This document shows positions 5,191 through 64,000 of a stretch of 64,000 nt of DNA, piece by piece; within the stretch, counting starts at the first letter, position 1; the number at the start of each line of letters is the position of its first letter. The DNA is from Gammaproteobacteria bacterium (GTDB taxonomy: Bacteria > Pseudomonadota > Gammaproteobacteria > JAUZRS01): NCBI GenBank assembly GCA_030949385.1, contig JAUZSP010000007.1, positions 67,210-131,209 of the forward strand. Reading direction: 5' to 3'. The notes below the pieces were generated by a model. It was given only the letters and a program-made list of their open reading frames with translations, was not told the DNA's origin and ran no database searches. A program made the translations under genes and the position numbers.

Positions 5191-6594
<1,404 letters not shown>

Positions 6595-6617
6595 GCCCAA
6601 TATTTTCGCCAATTTTA

Positions 6618-6651
6618 TGTTGGGTTTCCGCTGCGCTGTAACCCAACCTAC
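6618..6651 (-). repeat. GTAG-type REP-like palindrome
   Basis: Minus strand GTAG-GTTGGGTT-acagcgcagcgg-AAACCCAAC-A, intergenic immediately after purB. Confidence 0.6.
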
Positions 6652-6672
6652 ACCTCACGGGTCCCCTCTCTC

Positions 6673-7821
6673 ATGCAGATCCAATTTCCGCCTCATCTGA
6701 ATATCGACCTCTTTCTGCGCGACTACTGGCAAAAAAAGCCGCTGCTGATTCGCAATGCCTTCCCCGACTTTATCAACCCCATCGAGGCCGATGAGCTGGC
6801 GGGTTTAGCCTGTGAAGAAGAGATCCCCTCACGGATTATTCAGCAACACAGCCCAACAGATTGGCGCTGCCGCATGGGGTCTTTTGAAGCATCGGATTTT
6901 GCTCAACTGCCCGAAAGCGATTGGTCGCTGCTGATCAGCGATGTGGAAACACATCTGCCAGAGTTTCAAGCCTACCTTGAACCGTTTCGGTTTATCCCCG
7001 ACTGGCGCATTGATGACTTGATGATCAGCTACGCGCCCGAAGGCGGTTCCGTCGGCCCCCACAGCGATCAGTACGATGTTTTTTTGCTGCAAACCTCTGG
7101 GCGAAGACGATGGTCGATTCACAGCCAACCTCTGAGCGAGGCCGATTTTCTGCCTGATCTGGAGTTGAAAATTCTGCGTGAATTTGAAACCGAGCAGAGT
7201 TGGATCACCGAGCCGGGCGATCTGCTCTATCTGCCTCCAGGAGTGGCACACTTTGGCGTGGCACTGGAACCCTGCATGACGTGGTCGGTGGGCTTTCGTG
7301 CCCCCAGCCAGCGCGATCTGGTCAGCGCCTATCTGGACGATTTAATCCCGAGCCTAAAAGAACAGCGCTACAGCGACCCAGAACTCAGCCAACAGCCCCA
7401 CCCCAGCGAAATCACCCCTCACGCACGGCAAAAACTGCGTGACACCCTGCGCCAACAATTGAGCCAAAATGACGATCAACTGGATCTTTTTTTAGGTCGC
7501 TACCTGAGCGAAGCTGGGCGTGAATATGCGCTTGAGGTATTCGACGAGCTGTCTCCTGAACAGATTAAAATCGAGTTGGAACAAGGCAATACACTGCAAA
7601 AAGTCGCCGGAATTCGCTGCTCTTATATGCAGTTTGAACAGGAAGCTCAGCTCTTTATCGGCGGTGAAAACATCCAAATATCCCTTGAATTGGCACAACT
7701 GATCGGAAAAGCAGCAAAAATAGACAAAAAAGCCCTGACAACGGGTCACACTCCCTCTACCCTTAGGCTTCTGAGCCAACTTTACAATTTTGGTTTTTTG
7801 GAGTTCTGCGATGACCTTTGA
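6673..7821 (+). CDS. roxA: JmjC/cupin 50S ribosomal protein uL16 arginine hydroxylase
   Basis: FLRDYWQKKPLLIR, PDWRIDDLMISYA..GGSVGPHSDQYDVFLLQ, EPGDLLYLPPGVAH; conserved position after purB. Confidence 0.9.
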   Translation: MQIQFPPHLNIDLFLRDYWQKKPLLIRNAFPDFINPIEADELAGLACEEEIPSRIIQQHSPTDWRCRMGSFEASDFAQLPESDWSLLISDVETHLPEFQAYLEPFRFIPDWRIDDLMISYAPEGGSVGPHSDQYDVFLLQTSGRRRWSIHSQPLSEADFLPDLELKILREFETEQSWITEPGDLLYLPPGVAHFGVALEPCMTWSVGFRAPSQRDLVSAYLDDLIPSLKEQRYSDPELSQQPHPSEITPHARQKLRDTLRQQLSQNDDQLDLFLGRYLSEAGREYALEVFDELSPEQIKIELEQGNTLQKVAGIRCSYMQFEQEAQLFIGGENIQISLELAQLIGKAAKIDKKALTTGHTPSTLRLLSQLYNFGFLEFCDDL

Positions 7822-59675: not shown

Positions 59676-60566
59676 TTACCCCCCCACCTTTCTGTGACAC
59701 GCCACCACAGTGTGCTCGCTGTCCAGCTCAAAACACCAATCCGCTCGCTGCGGCAAGGTCTTTAAACAGTGTTGTGTTAAACGTTCAAAATGTTGTATAA
59801 AACGCCGCAGTTCTGTTTCATTCATCAAGCGATTTTTTTTATCAGACTGTTCTGATAGCTTCTGCTCCTGTAATAAACGCCACTGATAAACCCTCTCAAA
59901 GGTGGGTGGGTTCAGCAGTGCCAGATAATCTATTTTTTTAAACAACTTCTGATACTCATCCGCCAAACAGTCGTTCACATACGTGCGCCAAACGCTGCTT
60001 GAATCCTCATTTTTTTCCAAATCATTTATAGGCAAAGCCACCTCAGCTGCTGTTTGCGCTTCAGCGCCCAAACACCACCCTTCTAAAATAATTAGATCCA
60101 CTTTTCCCCGCACAAGCGACCATTCAGATTCGGGTAAACGGTCATCAATGCTTTTATCAAAACGGGGAATTAAACAGTCGTCGGTAGGCGCTGTCTGCTG
60201 CAATTGTGCCAGCGTCCGCAAGGCCAGTACCACATCGTGGGTTCCCGGCACCCCACGAGTGGCCAACAAAGGATGAACGTGCTGGGCAAGCTCTTGGCGC
60301 TGTTGATGGGTTAAATAAAAATCATCAAGCGAAAGCGACACCACCGAGAGTGGTTTTAATAACAGAGCAAGCAACTTTGCTAAAGTGGATTTTCCCGAAC
60401 CCTGTGAACCTTGCAGACCAATCACAAGAGGTTTATCCGCCTTTTTATACAACAAAAAAACATCGTCAGCCAAGTCCTTAAACCAAGGGAAAACAGTATG
60501 GCGATACTGTTCAGGCAGTCGTTCTTGTTTTAAAAAATCATCAATTTTTTTATTATTCACATCCAT
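59676..60566 (-). CDS. P-loop kinase of the PRK/uridine kinase family, plant-type D-glycerate 3-kinase-like
   Basis: GLQGSQGSGKST, SLDDFYL, LLATRGVPGTHD, PRFDKS.DDR, LEGWC, WRLLQE, FIQHFERL. Confidence 0.8.
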   Translation of the reverse strand: MDVNNKKIDDFLKQERLPEQYRHTVFPWFKDLADDVFLLYKKADKPLVIGLQGSQGSGKSTLAKLLALLLKPLSVVSLSLDDFYLTHQQRQELAQHVHPLLATRGVPGTHDVVLALRTLAQLQQTAPTDDCLIPRFDKSIDDRLPESEWSLVRGKVDLIILEGWCLGAEAQTAAEVALPINDLEKNEDSSSVWRTYVNDCLADEYQKLFKKIDYLALLNPPTFERVYQWRLLQEQKLSEQSDKKNRLMNETELRRFIQHFERLTQHCLKTLPQRADWCFELDSEHTVVACHRKVGG

Positions 60567-60585
60567 AGCACCAAATTTTAAGCAC

Positions 60586-60617
60586 AAAAAAAGCGGAGCA
60601 CAAAGGCTCCGCTTTTT
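60586..60617. terminator. Intrinsic terminator after fccB (potentially bidirectional)
   Basis: AAAAAAAGCGGAGC-acaaag-GCTCCGCTTTTT. Confidence 0.8.
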
Positions 60618-60643
60618 AAGTCAATAAATTGACTTAACTGGCT

Positions 60644-61936
60644 TTAGCCAAACGTATCAGAGGTGATATTTTTGAACCAGCTGTGTGCATAACCCACTTC
60701 ACGCTTGCGGAAAGCAGGAGTTGCATCCATAGGTGTCAGGCCACCAGAGCCCTTAACCTTAATGATTTTACCTTCTGCACCGAGACGGTAAACCATTGCA
60801 ACAGAAATACCCCAATCTTCGCCAGGCACACTGTAACAGGTGTTAACGTAAGAAGGCGTAGGCGCATCATTGCCATTCAACATAGCAACGATGGCTGCTG
60901 CACAGACTTTGGCTTCAGAACTGGCCGCATAACCGGATTTCGGCAGAGGGCTAGCAACTGAGGAGTCACCAATGACGTGGACATTTTTGTGAATGGTAGA
61001 CTCGAACGTCTTCTGATTCACAGGACACCAACCTTTATCGTTGGTCAAGCCCGCAGCAAAGGCGATTTTACCGGCTTTCTGAGCAGGGATAACGTTTAAT
61101 ACGTCAGCCTTATGATCAGTAAACTCAGTAAAGGCCATGCGCTTGTCGGCATCAACACGATTAACCAGACCGTCGTTGGCTTTAGAAACCCACTCGATCA
61201 TGCTGTTGTCGGTACCGTAACCGTACATTGCTTTCCAAGACTGAACAAACAGGCCTTTCTTGGAGAACTTATCTTTAGAATCCAAAATCAAGATTTTTGA
61301 TTTTGGTTTGTGTTTCTTCAGATAATGTGCGATTTGACCGGCACGCTCGTATGGCCCAGGAGGACAACGGAAAGGGTTAGGAGGAGGTGCAATAATCACC
61401 GTACCGCCGTCTTTCATTGCTTCCAGCTGTTTGCGCAGAATGATGGTTTGTGAACCGGCTTTCCAAGCATGTGGCACTTTTTCAGCAGCAGCCTCATCGT
61501 AGCCTTCAATGGTATCCCATTTGAAGTCCACACCAGGAGAAACGATGCAATGATCGTAAGCGAAAGATTTTCCGCTTTTGGTGTTCACTTTTTGTGCTTT
61601 AGCATCAATACCGGTTACCCAGTCATTGACCACTTTAACACCGTGAGCTGCTAAACCACTGTAACCGAACTTGATTGAATCCATGCTACGGCCACCGCCC
61701 AGCACTTCATTACTCATGAAACAGGTGTAGTAATGTTTGTTGGCTTCGATCAGGGTCACTTCGATTGAAGAATCACCCATGCGAATGTATTTAGCAGCTG
61801 TTGCGCCACCCATACCACCACCAATTATCACAACCCGCTTGGTTGCACCCAAACTCAAGCCAGGAGCACCCAGCGCGCCAACGGCGGCGGCAGCACCTGT
61901 AACCTTGAGGAAATTACGACGTGTAAATTGACTCAT
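60644..61936 (-). CDS. fccB: Flavocytochrome c sulfide dehydrogenase, flavoprotein subunit
   Basis: Tat signal TRRNFLK; [14 protein letters not shown]; CFMSN; [10 protein letters not shown]; PKSG; NTCYS. Confidence 0.93.
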
Positions 61937-61950
61937 ATTAGTCCTCTCCC

Positions 61951-62541
61951 CTACTTCTCGCTGGCATAAAAGTTCATGAGTTGATCCATACCAGCATCAC
62001 CCGCTTTTTTATGCATTTTTTCCAGTTTTTTCTTCATTTTTTTCGGCATTTCACGACTGCCGTCCATGAAGTCCTGCATCGTGTAATGCAAGTAAGGTCC
62101 CCACTGACCAGCTAGGATACCTGCATCGTCTTCACTGGAAGTACCGCCATCTTCGTGGCATTTTTCACAGTATTTATCGTGCAGTTTTGCACCTTTTTTG
62201 GCTTTGCCTTTATCAGACACCTGCATACCGGCTTTGAATTTTTGCTCGGCAAAAAATTTCGCCATCGCTTCAAATTCTTCTTCAGTGTAGCCTTTTGCGA
62301 TACGACCCATAATGGTTGAGGGGCGTTCGCCACTCTTATAGGCTTTCATTGCATCGACAAAGTAGTCTTTGGAAATACCCGCAATGGTCGGTGTCGCAGG
62401 CCCTTGGCTATTGCCATTGGTACCATGACAACCGGCACAGGTGTTGCCCAACATTTCACCACTGGGTGTCGCGGCCCAAGCCGTTGCACTCAATACCAAA
62501 CCACCAATCAACAAGGCAAGTTGTCTCTTTTTTTGCCTCAT
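61951..62541 (-). CDS. fccA: Flavocytochrome c sulfide dehydrogenase, dihaem cytochrome c subunit
   Basis: Sec signal; CAGCH and CEKCH; [11 protein letters not shown]. Confidence 0.92.
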
Positions 62542-62612
62542 AGTCTCCCTCCTCTCGCATTACAGCGTGGGTTAATAAAAACAGCGTTTATCTTACTCTT
62601 TGACCTGCAGAC

Positions 62613-63155
62613 CTACTCTGAATCTTCCGGCTCATCCGGCTCTTCATGAGCAATGCCTTTATGACAATCGATACACGTTTTTCCCTTTTCAGTCGCACGA
62701 CGATGCTTTTTAGCAGCCATCTTATCCTGCTCGTCAAAATCCATATGTTCAACATTATGGCAACTGCGACACTCGCGAGAATCGCTGGCTTCCATTTTTG
62801 CCCAAACCCGAGAGGCCATATCCCAACGATGCGCTTCGTATTTTTCCGGCGTATCAATGGTGCCTAAAATTTCATGGTAAACGTCTTTGGCCGCCATGAT
62901 TTTGGCGTAAAGTTTAGGTCCAAATTCCTTAGGAACGTGGCAATCGGCACAGGTGGCTTGCACACCGGAACGATTTTTAAAATGGGAGGTTTCTTTATAC
63001 TCGTTGTAATTGGTCTGCATCGTATGACACGAAATACAAAACTCCATACGGTTGGTATAACTGAAAAAAGCATTAACACTGGCCAGTGCTGCTGCACCCG
63101 CCAAAAAAATTAAGACACCAATCCAGAGGCCTTTTTTAGCCGCACGATCTACCAT
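62613..63155 (-). CDS. NapC/NirT-family membrane tetrahaem cytochrome c
   Basis: N-terminal TM helix; CISCH, CADCH, CRSCH and CIDCH; GIAH terminus. Confidence 0.93.
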   Translation of the reverse strand: MVDRAAKKGLWIGVLIFLAGAAALASVNAFFSYTNRMEFCISCHTMQTNYNEYKETSHFKNRSGVQATCADCHVPKEFGPKLYAKIMAAKDVYHEILGTIDTPEKYEAHRWDMASRVWAKMEASDSRECRSCHNVEHMDFDEQDKMAAKKHRRATEKGKTCIDCHKGIAHEEPDEPEDSE

Positions 63156-63336
63156 AGAACTTCATCCATAGAACAAAAATTATTTATCTAGAAAAATGTT
63201 TTCAATAGTCTCCGCTCTGTCTGAAAACCATTTAGCTCGTAATTGCATTTAAACAACGAATTAACCTCTGGGAATTATTTATACCACGGCTTATTCATAG
63301 AAACCACAACTTTCAGCTTTTTTTAAGTTACAAGCA

Positions 63337-63364
63337 CCGTTGAGTAAAGGTCTCTACTCAACGG
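63337..63364. terminator. 10-bp stem hairpin downstream of the RND gene (terminator or RNA stability element)
   Basis: CCGTTGAGTA-aaggtctc-TACTCAACGG; no adjacent U-tract. Confidence 0.4.
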
Positions 63365-63379
63365 CCTATAAAACCACGT

Positions 63380-64000
63380 TTAAACGTGGCTCTGCTTCTC
63401 AGTGCTGTCATCAGACATGCTTGAACCCACACTGATGCACCCCAGTGGTATCACGATCAAAGTCAAAATCGTCGAGATCATCACCCCAAACAGCAGTGAA
63501 ACCGCCATACCTTGGAAAATCGGATCACTGAGGATCACACTGGCACCGCCCATCAAAGCCAATGCCGTGATCACAATCGGACGGGTACGGGCTTTACACG
63601 CACGCAACACCGCCTCTTCCACGGGAGTACCCATTTTCACTTCGGCAATAGAAAAATCCACCAGCAAAATAGAATTACGCACAATAATGCCCGCCAAAGC
63701 AATAAAACCGATCATCGAGGTGGCAGTAAATTCAGCCCCCATAATCCAGTGACCCGGCACAATGCCCAACAGAGTTAAGGGGATCGGAGCCATGATCACC
63801 GCTGGCAAGACAAAGTTACCGATCATGCCCACCACCAACATGTAAATAAGGATCAGAGCCACACCAAAAGCAATGCCCATATCACGGAAGGTGACGTAGG
63901 TAATCGTCCACTCACCGCCCCACTCAAACGCAGATTCACCGTTATCCTCAGGCGCGCCGGTCATAAAACCGGACATCGTTACCCCATCGGGGGTAGTGTA
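63380..64000 (-). CDS. AcrB/CusA-type RND permease, C-terminal part; runs off the window end
   Basis: WGGEWTITYVTFRD, GFIALAGIIVRNSILLVDF, RTRPIVITA, GMAVSLLFG. Confidence 0.9.
   Translation of the reverse strand, partial: YTTPDGVTMSGFMTGAPEDNGESAFEWGGEWTITYVTFRDMGIAFGVALILIYMLVVGMIGNFVLPAVIMAPIPLTLLGIVPGHWIMGAEFTATSMIGFIALAGIIVRNSILLVDFSIAEVKMGTPVEEAVLRACKARTRPIVITALALMGGASVILSDPIFQGMAVSLLFGVMISTILTLIVIPLGCISVGSSMSDDSTEKQSHV

Follow-up and report, generated by a model that had tools for sequence, protein, structure and literature searches.

Introduction

To which acceptor does flavocytochrome c sulfide dehydrogenase (FCSD), the product of fccA and fccB, hand the electrons of sulfide? The physiological role and the in vivo electron acceptor of this enzyme form a decades-old question, and the genome paper of Allochromatium vinosum termed its role in that organism unresolved (PMC3368242). 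The question is raised again by a 64,000-nucleotide stretch of contig JAUZSP010000007.1 from a gammaproteobacterium (hereafter the window, by which the whole stretch is meant), where a gene encoding a tetrahaem membrane cytochrome of the NapC/NirT family stands directly before fccA and fccB. A sequence-only reading of the window had proposed that the three genes form a three-component module, which either feeds sulfide electrons into quinone or runs FccAB in reverse as a sulfur or polysulfide reductase. In the present analysis the module was supported by a conserved and clade-specific linkage, a natural fusion, the residues of the quinone site, a bridging RNA contig, and co-induction and co-detection of the corresponding products in other organisms. 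That the cytochrome gene, fccA and fccB constitute one conserved functional unit is well supported, and a haem-wired route from sulfide to quinone through FccAB and the cytochrome is the best reading of it, which we hold to be somewhat probable.

Results

Linkage of the cytochrome gene to the dihaem type of fccAB

On the minus strand of the window the order is cytochrome gene, 71 bp, fccA, 14 bp, fccB and a terminator (60588-63379), so that the position given before for the cytochrome gene, 71 bp upstream of fccA on the same strand, was exact in all its coordinates. A neighbourhood survey for this gene order, which the sequence-only reading had suggested, showed the linkage to be conserved. 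One genome per species was scanned with an alignment of the cytochrome, which yielded 80 loci (57-95% identity) from sulfur-oxidising Gammaproteobacteria (Chromatiaceae, Sedimenticola, Thiodiazotropha and tubeworm symbionts, Thiomicrorhabdus and Thiotrichaceae), together with two loci labelled Alphaproteobacteria. Among the 59 loci that could be assessed, each with at least 3.6 kb downstream, fccA-fccB was found downstream on the same strand in 49, and in two more loci (L020 and L078) it lies just upstream of the cytochrome gene. A cluster was recognised by a tetrahaem gene on the same strand and within about 1.6 kb of fccA-fccB, and the window belongs to this group with its gap of 71 bp.

In the reverse sample, 80 metagenome loci were chosen by FccB (45-71% identity) and counted if at least 2.3 kb was present upstream. 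The cytochrome gene was present in 8 of the 11 loci with a dihaem FccA and in none of the 22 loci with a monohaem FccA (Fisher p = 1.2e-5). Two short dihaem loci (L095 and L099) also possess it, and in L098 and L099 it is located downstream of fccB. The linkage between the cytochrome and fccAB is far beyond chance, is specific to the A. vinosum-type (dihaem) enzyme and survives rearrangement. Furthermore, the pairwise distances of the cytochrome and of FccB are correlated (r = 0.69, Mantel 0/2000), and those of the proven partners FccA and FccB are correlated barely more tightly (r = 0.75).

A natural fusion was also found. Two metagenome-assembled genomes of Thiotrichaceae (L029 and L073) encode a 398-aa protein with six CXXCH motifs, in which the tetrahaem domain is followed by a Pro/Ala-rich linker and an FccA-like dihaem domain. 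In L029 the next gene after the fusion encodes a protein of 812 aa that contains seven CXXCH motifs, and fccB is 5 kb off on the opposite strand.

Some other haem proteins were noticed at these loci. A c4/TsdB-like dihaem cytochrome of about 250 aa is the second recurrent neighbour of the cytochrome and the ankyrin protein described below (28 of the 80 loci), and is the usual neighbour where fccAB is absent; no such protein is encoded in the window. The dihaem-type fccAB of L092, which lacks the tetrahaem cytochrome, is followed after fccB by a gene encoding a 475-aa protein with eight CXXCH motifs (L092:6501-7928), and L098 encodes, together with the cytochrome downstream of fccB, two proteins of about 470 aa that each contain four CXXCH motifs (L098:7067-9967). 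The multihaem proteins after fccB in these two loci are possible alternative partners.

The ankyrin gene and the three-gene variant of the window

In most loci, a periplasmic, signal-peptide-bearing ankyrin-repeat protein of about 315 aa is encoded between the cytochrome gene and fccA, a component that the sequence-only reading did not contain. The ankyrin gene is present in about 70 of the 80 loci, and no homologue was detected anywhere in the window. The ankyrin-free loci are scattered on the cytochrome tree, where the window pairs with L064 and where at least five losses are forced by well-supported branches, and the adjacency of the cytochrome gene and fccAB has outlasted the losses of the ankyrin gene. 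Judged by gene content, the window holds a minimal, ankyrin-free, three-gene variant of an arrangement already present in sequenced genomes.

These observations bear on the possibility that the cytochrome, together with the ankyrin protein where there is one, is an independent module that is co-located or co-regulated with fccAB, for instance under donor limitation, and exchanges no electrons with it directly. Loci with either partner alone would fit such a module, as would the purification of soluble FCSD without the cytochrome and the possible separate 5' end and unequal depths of the fccAB RNA (see below). We nevertheless regard it as unlikely, given that the linkage spans several families of Gammaproteobacteria as well as the two loci labelled Alphaproteobacteria, that it outlives rearrangements which put the cytochrome gene on either side of fccAB, whether the ankyrin gene is there or not, and that the natural fusion to an FccA-like domain and a distance correlation near that of FccA and FccB point to a closer relationship.

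The cytochrome and its quinone site

The cytochrome matches the Pfam family NapC/NirT (PF03264) with an E value of 2.5e-69 and 232.9 bits (cut-off 24.1) over profile positions 8-173 of 174. Its N-terminus consists of a basic stretch and then a hydrophobic helix of about 22 residues (residues 10-31), and its haem motifs are CISCH, CADCH, CRSCH and CIDCH. The protein shares 51% identity with NapC of E. coli and 44% with the N-terminal domain of TorC, and it falls short of all the NCBIfam cut-offs, be it for NapC, for the NapC/NirT subfamily, for TorC or for NrfH (NF007906, 213.6 vs 349 bits; TIGR02161, 221.8 vs 310.6 bits; TIGR02162, 226.6 vs 478.2 bits). By score it is not NapC sensu stricto, NirT or TorC, and the reductase genes napAB and torA do not lie beside it in the window.

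By sequence, the sole relative of the cytochrome in the PDB is NrfH, which is a weak match (E 5e-8). A single-chain AlphaFold2 model was of moderate quality (predicted local distance difference test, pLDDT, 73.5, with block means up to 96) and contains a helix at residues 2-34; Foldseek searches with this model returned only NrfH, with template modelling (TM) scores of 0.48-0.57. In the alignment, residues M46 (within CXXCHXM), K85 and D91 correspond to Met49, Lys82 and Asp89 of NrfH, and all three are invariant in 26 relatives. The equivalent of Lys82 of NrfH in CymA is Lys91, a residue that forms a hydrogen bond to a quinol analogue and that CymA cannot do without in its interaction with quinol (PMC2762525). 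Since M46, K85 and D91 are kept, the cytochrome retains the quinone pocket of the NapC/NirT family, and at the level of aligned residues this NrfH/CymA-type pocket is intact.

The cytochromes associated with FccAB form a subfamily with its own signature of 11 positions. One of these, H94, is invariant in the subfamily and is replaced by Gly in E. coli NapC and by Gln in TorC, while at another, K76, NapC and NrfH have the His that comes after their second haem motif. The H94/K76 signature may reflect a different haem ligation with a shifted distal ligand.

NrfH of Desulfovibrio vulgaris (2J7A, 2VR0) and CymA of Shewanella resemble the window cytochrome in having one transmembrane helix and four haems, and they share with it the CXXCHXM first haem motif and the Lys and Asp of the quinol site. 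However, NrfH and CymA oxidise menaquinol and feed reductases, whereas the partner encoded in the window is a dehydrogenase, for which reason the opposite flow is proposed here. TorC of E. coli combines a NapC-like domain with an extra haem domain that docks its reductase, whereas the window protein is unfused; TorC serves a molybdoenzyme reductase, and neither TorA nor NapA was found near the window cytochrome. The fusions of L029 and L073 copy the logic of TorC, in that a partner-docking cytochrome is joined to the NapC-like domain.

FccA and FccB

FccB matches the Pfam families FCSD_central (PF21706, 4.7e-48), FCSD-flav_bind (PF09242, 8.2e-27) and TAT_signal (PF10518), and aligns with chain A of the A. 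vinosum FCSD (1FCD_A) with 548 bits. FccA, which is encoded immediately upstream of fccB and has a signal peptide and two CXXCH motifs, aligns with 1FCD_C with 201 bits (residues 26-195) and with 3VRD_A with 193 bits over the whole mature protein, and the scores of both FccA and FccB against the Thermochromatium enzyme 3VRD nearly equal those against 1FCD. Residues C72, C191 and C367 of FccB align exactly with Cys42, Cys161 and Cys337 of 1FCD and are invariant in 17 relatives. We take these three to be the FAD-linking cysteine and the active-site cysteine pair of the structure paper (Chen et al. 1994).

With the model of sulfide:quinone oxidoreductase (SQR; NF049943) FccB reaches 105 bits against a cut-off of 525, and the SQRs in the PDB, the human enzyme included, are matched only at E values of about 1e-13. 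By these comparisons, the FccAB of the window is orthologous to the archetypal dihaem FCSD, shares the catalytic cysteines of the crystallised A. vinosum enzyme and is not an SQR. The likeness to SQR lies in the proposed net reaction, from sulfide to quinone, and FccB is a distant homologue of that enzyme; in SQR, one flavoprotein attached to the membrane hands its electrons straight to quinone, whereas in the window six haems in two extra proteins would serve as the wire.

The cluster in A. vinosum and the Riftia symbiont

The same cluster adjoins the archetypal fccAB of A. vinosum, which the sequence-only reading had not noted. There, Alvin_1092 encodes FccB, Alvin_1093 encodes FccA, Alvin_1094 encodes an uncharacterised ankyrin protein and Alvin_1095 encodes a four-haem cytochrome (PMC11267869). 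When pyrite was compared with sulfide, the log2 fold changes of Alvin_1092 to Alvin_1095 were 6.2, 7.5, 4.8 and 5.4, respectively, and all four were in the ten most induced genes, with Alvin_1093 ranking 1st, Alvin_1092 3rd, Alvin_1095 6th and Alvin_1094 9th; the authors described the function of the four-haem Alvin_1095 as unresolved (PMC11267869). In A. humboldtianum (L080), the sister species of A. vinosum, the order is cytochrome, ankyrin, fccA and fccB. The A. vinosum locus differs from the window in its ankyrin gene, the cytochrome gene of the window being just 71 bp from fccA. A. vinosum is a phototroph, whereas the organism of the window is an uncultured, non-phototrophic marine gammaproteobacterium of vent and microbial-mat samples.

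In the proteome of the Riftia symbiont, the tetrahaem cytochrome (EGV51004), the ankyrin protein (EGV51005), FccA (EGV51006) and FccB (EGV51007) were all detected (PMC7787665 supplement). The tubeworm-symbiont loci L022, L030 and L041 have the same four-gene order, which matches these consecutive accessions. The "putative tetraheme cytochrome" EGV51004 was filed as NapC and EGV51005 under host interaction, and a separate "cytochrome c-type protein NapC" (EGV52153) was detected beside NapH (PMC7787665). Both annotations, of EGV51004 as NapC and of EGV51005 as a host-interaction protein, are probably misleading.

In the literature we found no description or test of a module of NapC-like cytochrome and fccAB; its genes came up only in the pyrite transcriptome of A. 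vinosum and in the proteome tables of the Riftia symbiont, and neither study interprets the linkage. The present analysis adds that the linkage is clade-specific, that a natural fusion exists and that an RNA contig bridges the gap, as well as the evidence from proteome and accessions.

Given its family, the cytochrome might be thought to serve, as NapC or NirT, a nitrate or nitrite reductase whose genes lie in another part of the genome, and to stand beside fccAB incidentally. The 51% identity to E. coli NapC and the NapC labels of its relatives in databases agree with such a role, and in L035 and L048, 2 of 91 loci, nap genes do lie directly beside the cluster. On the other side stand the scores below all curated NapC, NirT and TorC cut-offs and the conserved linkage with fccAB, and no nap, tor or nrf gene was found in the window: queries with E. 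coli NapA/B/D/G/H, TorA and NrfA/B gave no match by tblastn (NirS was not queried), which agrees with the earlier remark that nap and tor genes are lacking nearby, and NapC and TorC as queries matched at the cytochrome gene alone. The genome of A. vinosum has no obvious dissimilatory or assimilatory nitrate reduction genes, and its paper does not mention the cytochrome (PMC3368242). Because the family occurs in A. vinosum, and because the Riftia symbiont has a true NapC besides its Fcc-linked protein, a distant Nap or Nir role is very unlikely for the family, and for the window cytochrome we give it hardly any credence. The outcome that the sequence-only reading had named as fatal to its proposal, separate transcription with the cytochrome serving a distant Nap or Nir system and no conserved linkage, did not arise: the linkage is conserved, and the family occurs in A. 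vinosum, which is devoid of genes for nitrate reduction.

The nap genes near these clusters were recorded separately. In L035, napDAGH is divergent from the cytochrome gene (L035:1-4760), in L048 napDA lies downstream of fccB (L048:6682-7526), and napAGH is found downstream of a monohaem-type fccAB in L127 (L127:7239-11241). This proximity of nap and fcc clusters could be chance or could hint at sulfide-linked periplasmic nitrate reduction.

Boundaries and transcripts of the unit

The features of the unit in the window, and the related genes at other loci, are listed in Table 1. The sequence-only reading had seen no obvious terminator between the cytochrome gene and fccA, and we agree: the terminator scan found no terminator-like site in the 71-bp gap, and the RNA of this gap folds no better than shuffled sequences (z +1.41). 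No sigma-70-like promoter above the scan threshold was detected in this gap or in the 224-bp gap upstream of the cytochrome gene.

Table 1 Features of the cytochrome-fccAB unit in the window and of related genes at other loci
Feature	Position	Strand	Description
NapC/NirT-family tetrahaem membrane cytochrome, Fcc-associated subfamily	62613..63155	(-)	180 aa, N-terminal transmembrane helix, 4 CXXCH
Gap between cytochrome gene and fccA	62542..62612	(-)	71 bp, strong GAGGAGGGAG ribosome-binding site, without terminator
fccA, dihaem cytochrome c subunit of FCSD	61951..62541	(-)	196 aa, Sec signal ending AWA
fccB, FCSD flavoprotein subunit	60644..61936	(-)	430 aa, RRNFLK Tat signal
Intrinsic terminator closing the unit	60588..60617	(-)	12-bp stem, 6 G-C pairs, then T run
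Upstream gap, presumed promoter region of the unit	63156..63379	(-)	AT-rich, 224 bp, GC 0.41
Tetrahaem/FccA-like fusion	L029:1773-2969; L073 ~5775-6985		
c4/TsdB-like dihaem cytochrome	L018:9386-10141 (-); L028:8560-9342 (-); L020:6149-6892; 25 other loci		

The nearest relative of the window is L064, with 95-97% protein identity. Similarity between the two starts about 35 nt before the ATG of the cytochrome gene, and the flank further upstream is unrelated, while the 71-bp gap is about 90% identical (L064:7511-7613). Since the synteny with L064 begins at the cytochrome gene, the boundary of the unit is placed there and the neighbouring resistance-nodulation-division (RND) pump gene is excluded. 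This gene had been considered as a member of the unit and was rejected, since the 224-bp AT-rich gap and a hairpin part its end from the cytochrome gene, it is unlinked elsewhere and the flank in L064 is unrelated. The P-loop kinase gene at 59676-60587 was likewise rejected, as it sits beyond the terminator. An inverted repeat, CCGTTGAGTA/TACTCAACGG, is present at 63364-63336, directly past the stop codon of the RND pump gene, and a second inverted repeat, CCACGTTTAAACGTGG, overlaps this stop codon (both repeats are within 63336-63391). The CCGTTGAGTA/TACTCAACGG repeat is probably the terminator of the RND pump gene, though the scan did not flag it.

Transcripts were obtained from microbial-mat metatranscriptomes, which contain a relative about 90% identical to the window and not the same strain. 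In run X10 (record 16), an RNA contig of 715 nt covers 62156-62868, which takes in part of fccA, the gap and part of the cytochrome gene, and another contig of 814 nt covers the junction of fccB and fccA.

Discussion

A proposed haem-wired route from sulfide to quinone

The reading that we prefer, that of a haem-wired route from sulfide to quinone, can be laid out as follows. FccB, exported to the periplasm by the Tat system and equipped with its FAD-cysteine link and active-site disulfide, would oxidise sulfide, and the electrons of its flavin would pass to the two haems of FccA. The cytochrome, as a dedicated membrane partner with one transmembrane helix, would take the electrons from FccA and deliver them to (ubi)quinone, so that a haem-wired sulfide:quinone oxidoreductase with FccAB as its peripheral arm would run parallel to SQR. 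Sulfide electrons would in this way enter at the quinone level instead of that of cytochrome c, and from quinone they could drive the bc1 complex as well as reverse electron flow. In most relatives the ankyrin protein would probably act as a docking or assembly scaffold, one that was lost in the lineage of the window. Of this scheme, we infer the physical contact, the reduction of quinone and the direction of electron flow.

The redox potentials are about -270 mV for S0/HS-, near 0 mV for the flavin and haems of FCSD and about +100 mV for ubiquinone. With S0/HS- so far below ubiquinone, the forward direction is downhill overall. A partial precedent is ImoA of Sideroxydans lithotrophicus, a NapC/NirT protein of the Mto pathway that was proposed to reduce quinone in a lithotroph (PMC9600427). 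ImoA is thus like the window cytochrome in its proposed transfer of electrons from a periplasmic oxidation into the quinone pool, and differs in that its donor is Fe(II) via MtoD and that it is not linked to fccAB. For cytochrome cM552 of ammonia oxidisers, a like role in the NapC/NirT family has been proposed, with hydroxylamine as the donor via c554 and again no linkage to fccAB.

Several findings weigh against this route. The haem potentials of typical NapC and CymA proteins are low, which would make intermediate steps uphill. ImoA is the nearest precedent, and what was shown for it is the oxidation of quinol, not the reduction of quinone (PMC9600427). In A. vinosum, fccAB mutants do not differ from the wild type in sulfide oxidation, and the purified FCSD is a soluble heterodimer that has no tetrahaem subunit and that reduces soluble cytochromes in vitro (PMC3368242). 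The cytochrome is absent from 3 of the 11 dihaem-type fccAB loci, and about 8 of the 59 cytochrome-ankyrin loci have no adjacent fccAB; since these adjoin a c4-like dihaem cytochrome instead, the direct partner of the cytochrome may be dihaem cytochromes in general. As to the transcripts, the ends of the fccAB contigs fall at 62562 and 62571 in runs X11 and X18, which places them 21-30 nt ahead of the fccA start codon, and the RNA depth is lower over the cytochrome gene, so that part of the fccAB transcription may start inside the 71-bp gap. The simplest account combines read-through from the cytochrome gene with an additional 5' end in the gap, either a promoter or a processing site, at which contig ends and depths, being weak evidence, do no more than hint. 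This possible 5' end just upstream of fccA is an addition to the sequence-only reading. A weak TATTAA is found at 62577-62572, near these contig ends, and is only suggestive of an internal promoter element of fccAB.

The direction of electron flow

The first alternative direction is the usual one for NapC and CymA, in which the cytochrome would oxidise quinol and reduce dihaem cytochromes of the c4 type, be it FccA or the c4-like protein of 250 aa, and these would pass the electrons to soluble carriers, oxidases or a reaction centre. The module would then be a quinol:cytochrome c route without bc1, or a redox buffer, with FccA as a hub for the electrons of both sulfide and quinol. All characterised members of the family, and ImoA in vivo, oxidise quinol, the cytochrome-ankyrin pair without fccAB nearly always adjoins a c4-like dihaem cytochrome, and the fused FccA-like domain of L029 is not encoded next to fccB, all of which would suit this direction. 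However, the haem potentials of FccA are about 0 to +30 mV and therefore below ubiquinol, which makes the step uphill unless an acceptor pulls, and neither the specificity for dihaem loci that contain FccB (8 of 11 vs 0 of 22) nor the induction of the cluster under scarce sulfide would be explained. On balance we think that this direction is improbable, although it deserves to be taken into account.

The second alternative is the reverse operation, from quinol through the cytochrome and FccA to FccB, by which stored sulfur or polysulfide would be reduced to sulfide during anoxic maintenance in the dark. It is established physiology that, under anoxia, purple sulfur bacteria and large sulfur bacteria reduce the sulfur that they have stored, and oxidation of quinol is what the NapC family normally does. 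Against this, electrons from ubiquinol (about +100 mV) or menaquinol (-74 mV) would have to go uphill by 0.2-0.35 V to S0/HS- (about -270 mV), the cluster was induced in A. vinosum with pyrite as the electron donor, and FccB retains the architecture of the sulfide-oxidising 1FCD enzyme. The half of the sequence-only reading that had FccAB run backwards as a sulfur or polysulfide reductase is, owing to this uphill step, the part we would give up, and we rate it as very unlikely.

Implications

Taking the sulfide-to-quinone route one step further, we tentatively suggest, with rather less assurance than the route itself, that in the cell the dihaem FCSD may not be a freely soluble donor to cytochrome c but the catalytic head of a sulfide:quinone oxidoreductase with six haems that is docked to the membrane, with the cytochrome as the long-sought acceptor of FCSD and the ankyrin protein as an optional scaffold. 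If this is true, the three-gene form of the window would show that the minimal working unit needs no ankyrin protein, and reports of membrane-bound flavocytochrome c would be explained. Two misannotations in the Riftia symbiont would also be corrected, that of the cytochrome as NapC of nitrate reduction and that of the ankyrin protein as a host-interaction factor. The cytochrome would be the first member of the NapC/NirT family shown to reduce quinone in a physiological role on behalf of a sulfur enzyme. Beside SQR there would then be a second way for sulfide electrons to reach quinone, wired by haems and tuned to very low sulfide, and the energy yield credited to sulfide oxidation would change for purple sulfur bacteria, for the chemolithotrophs of vents and mats, and for the symbionts of animals.

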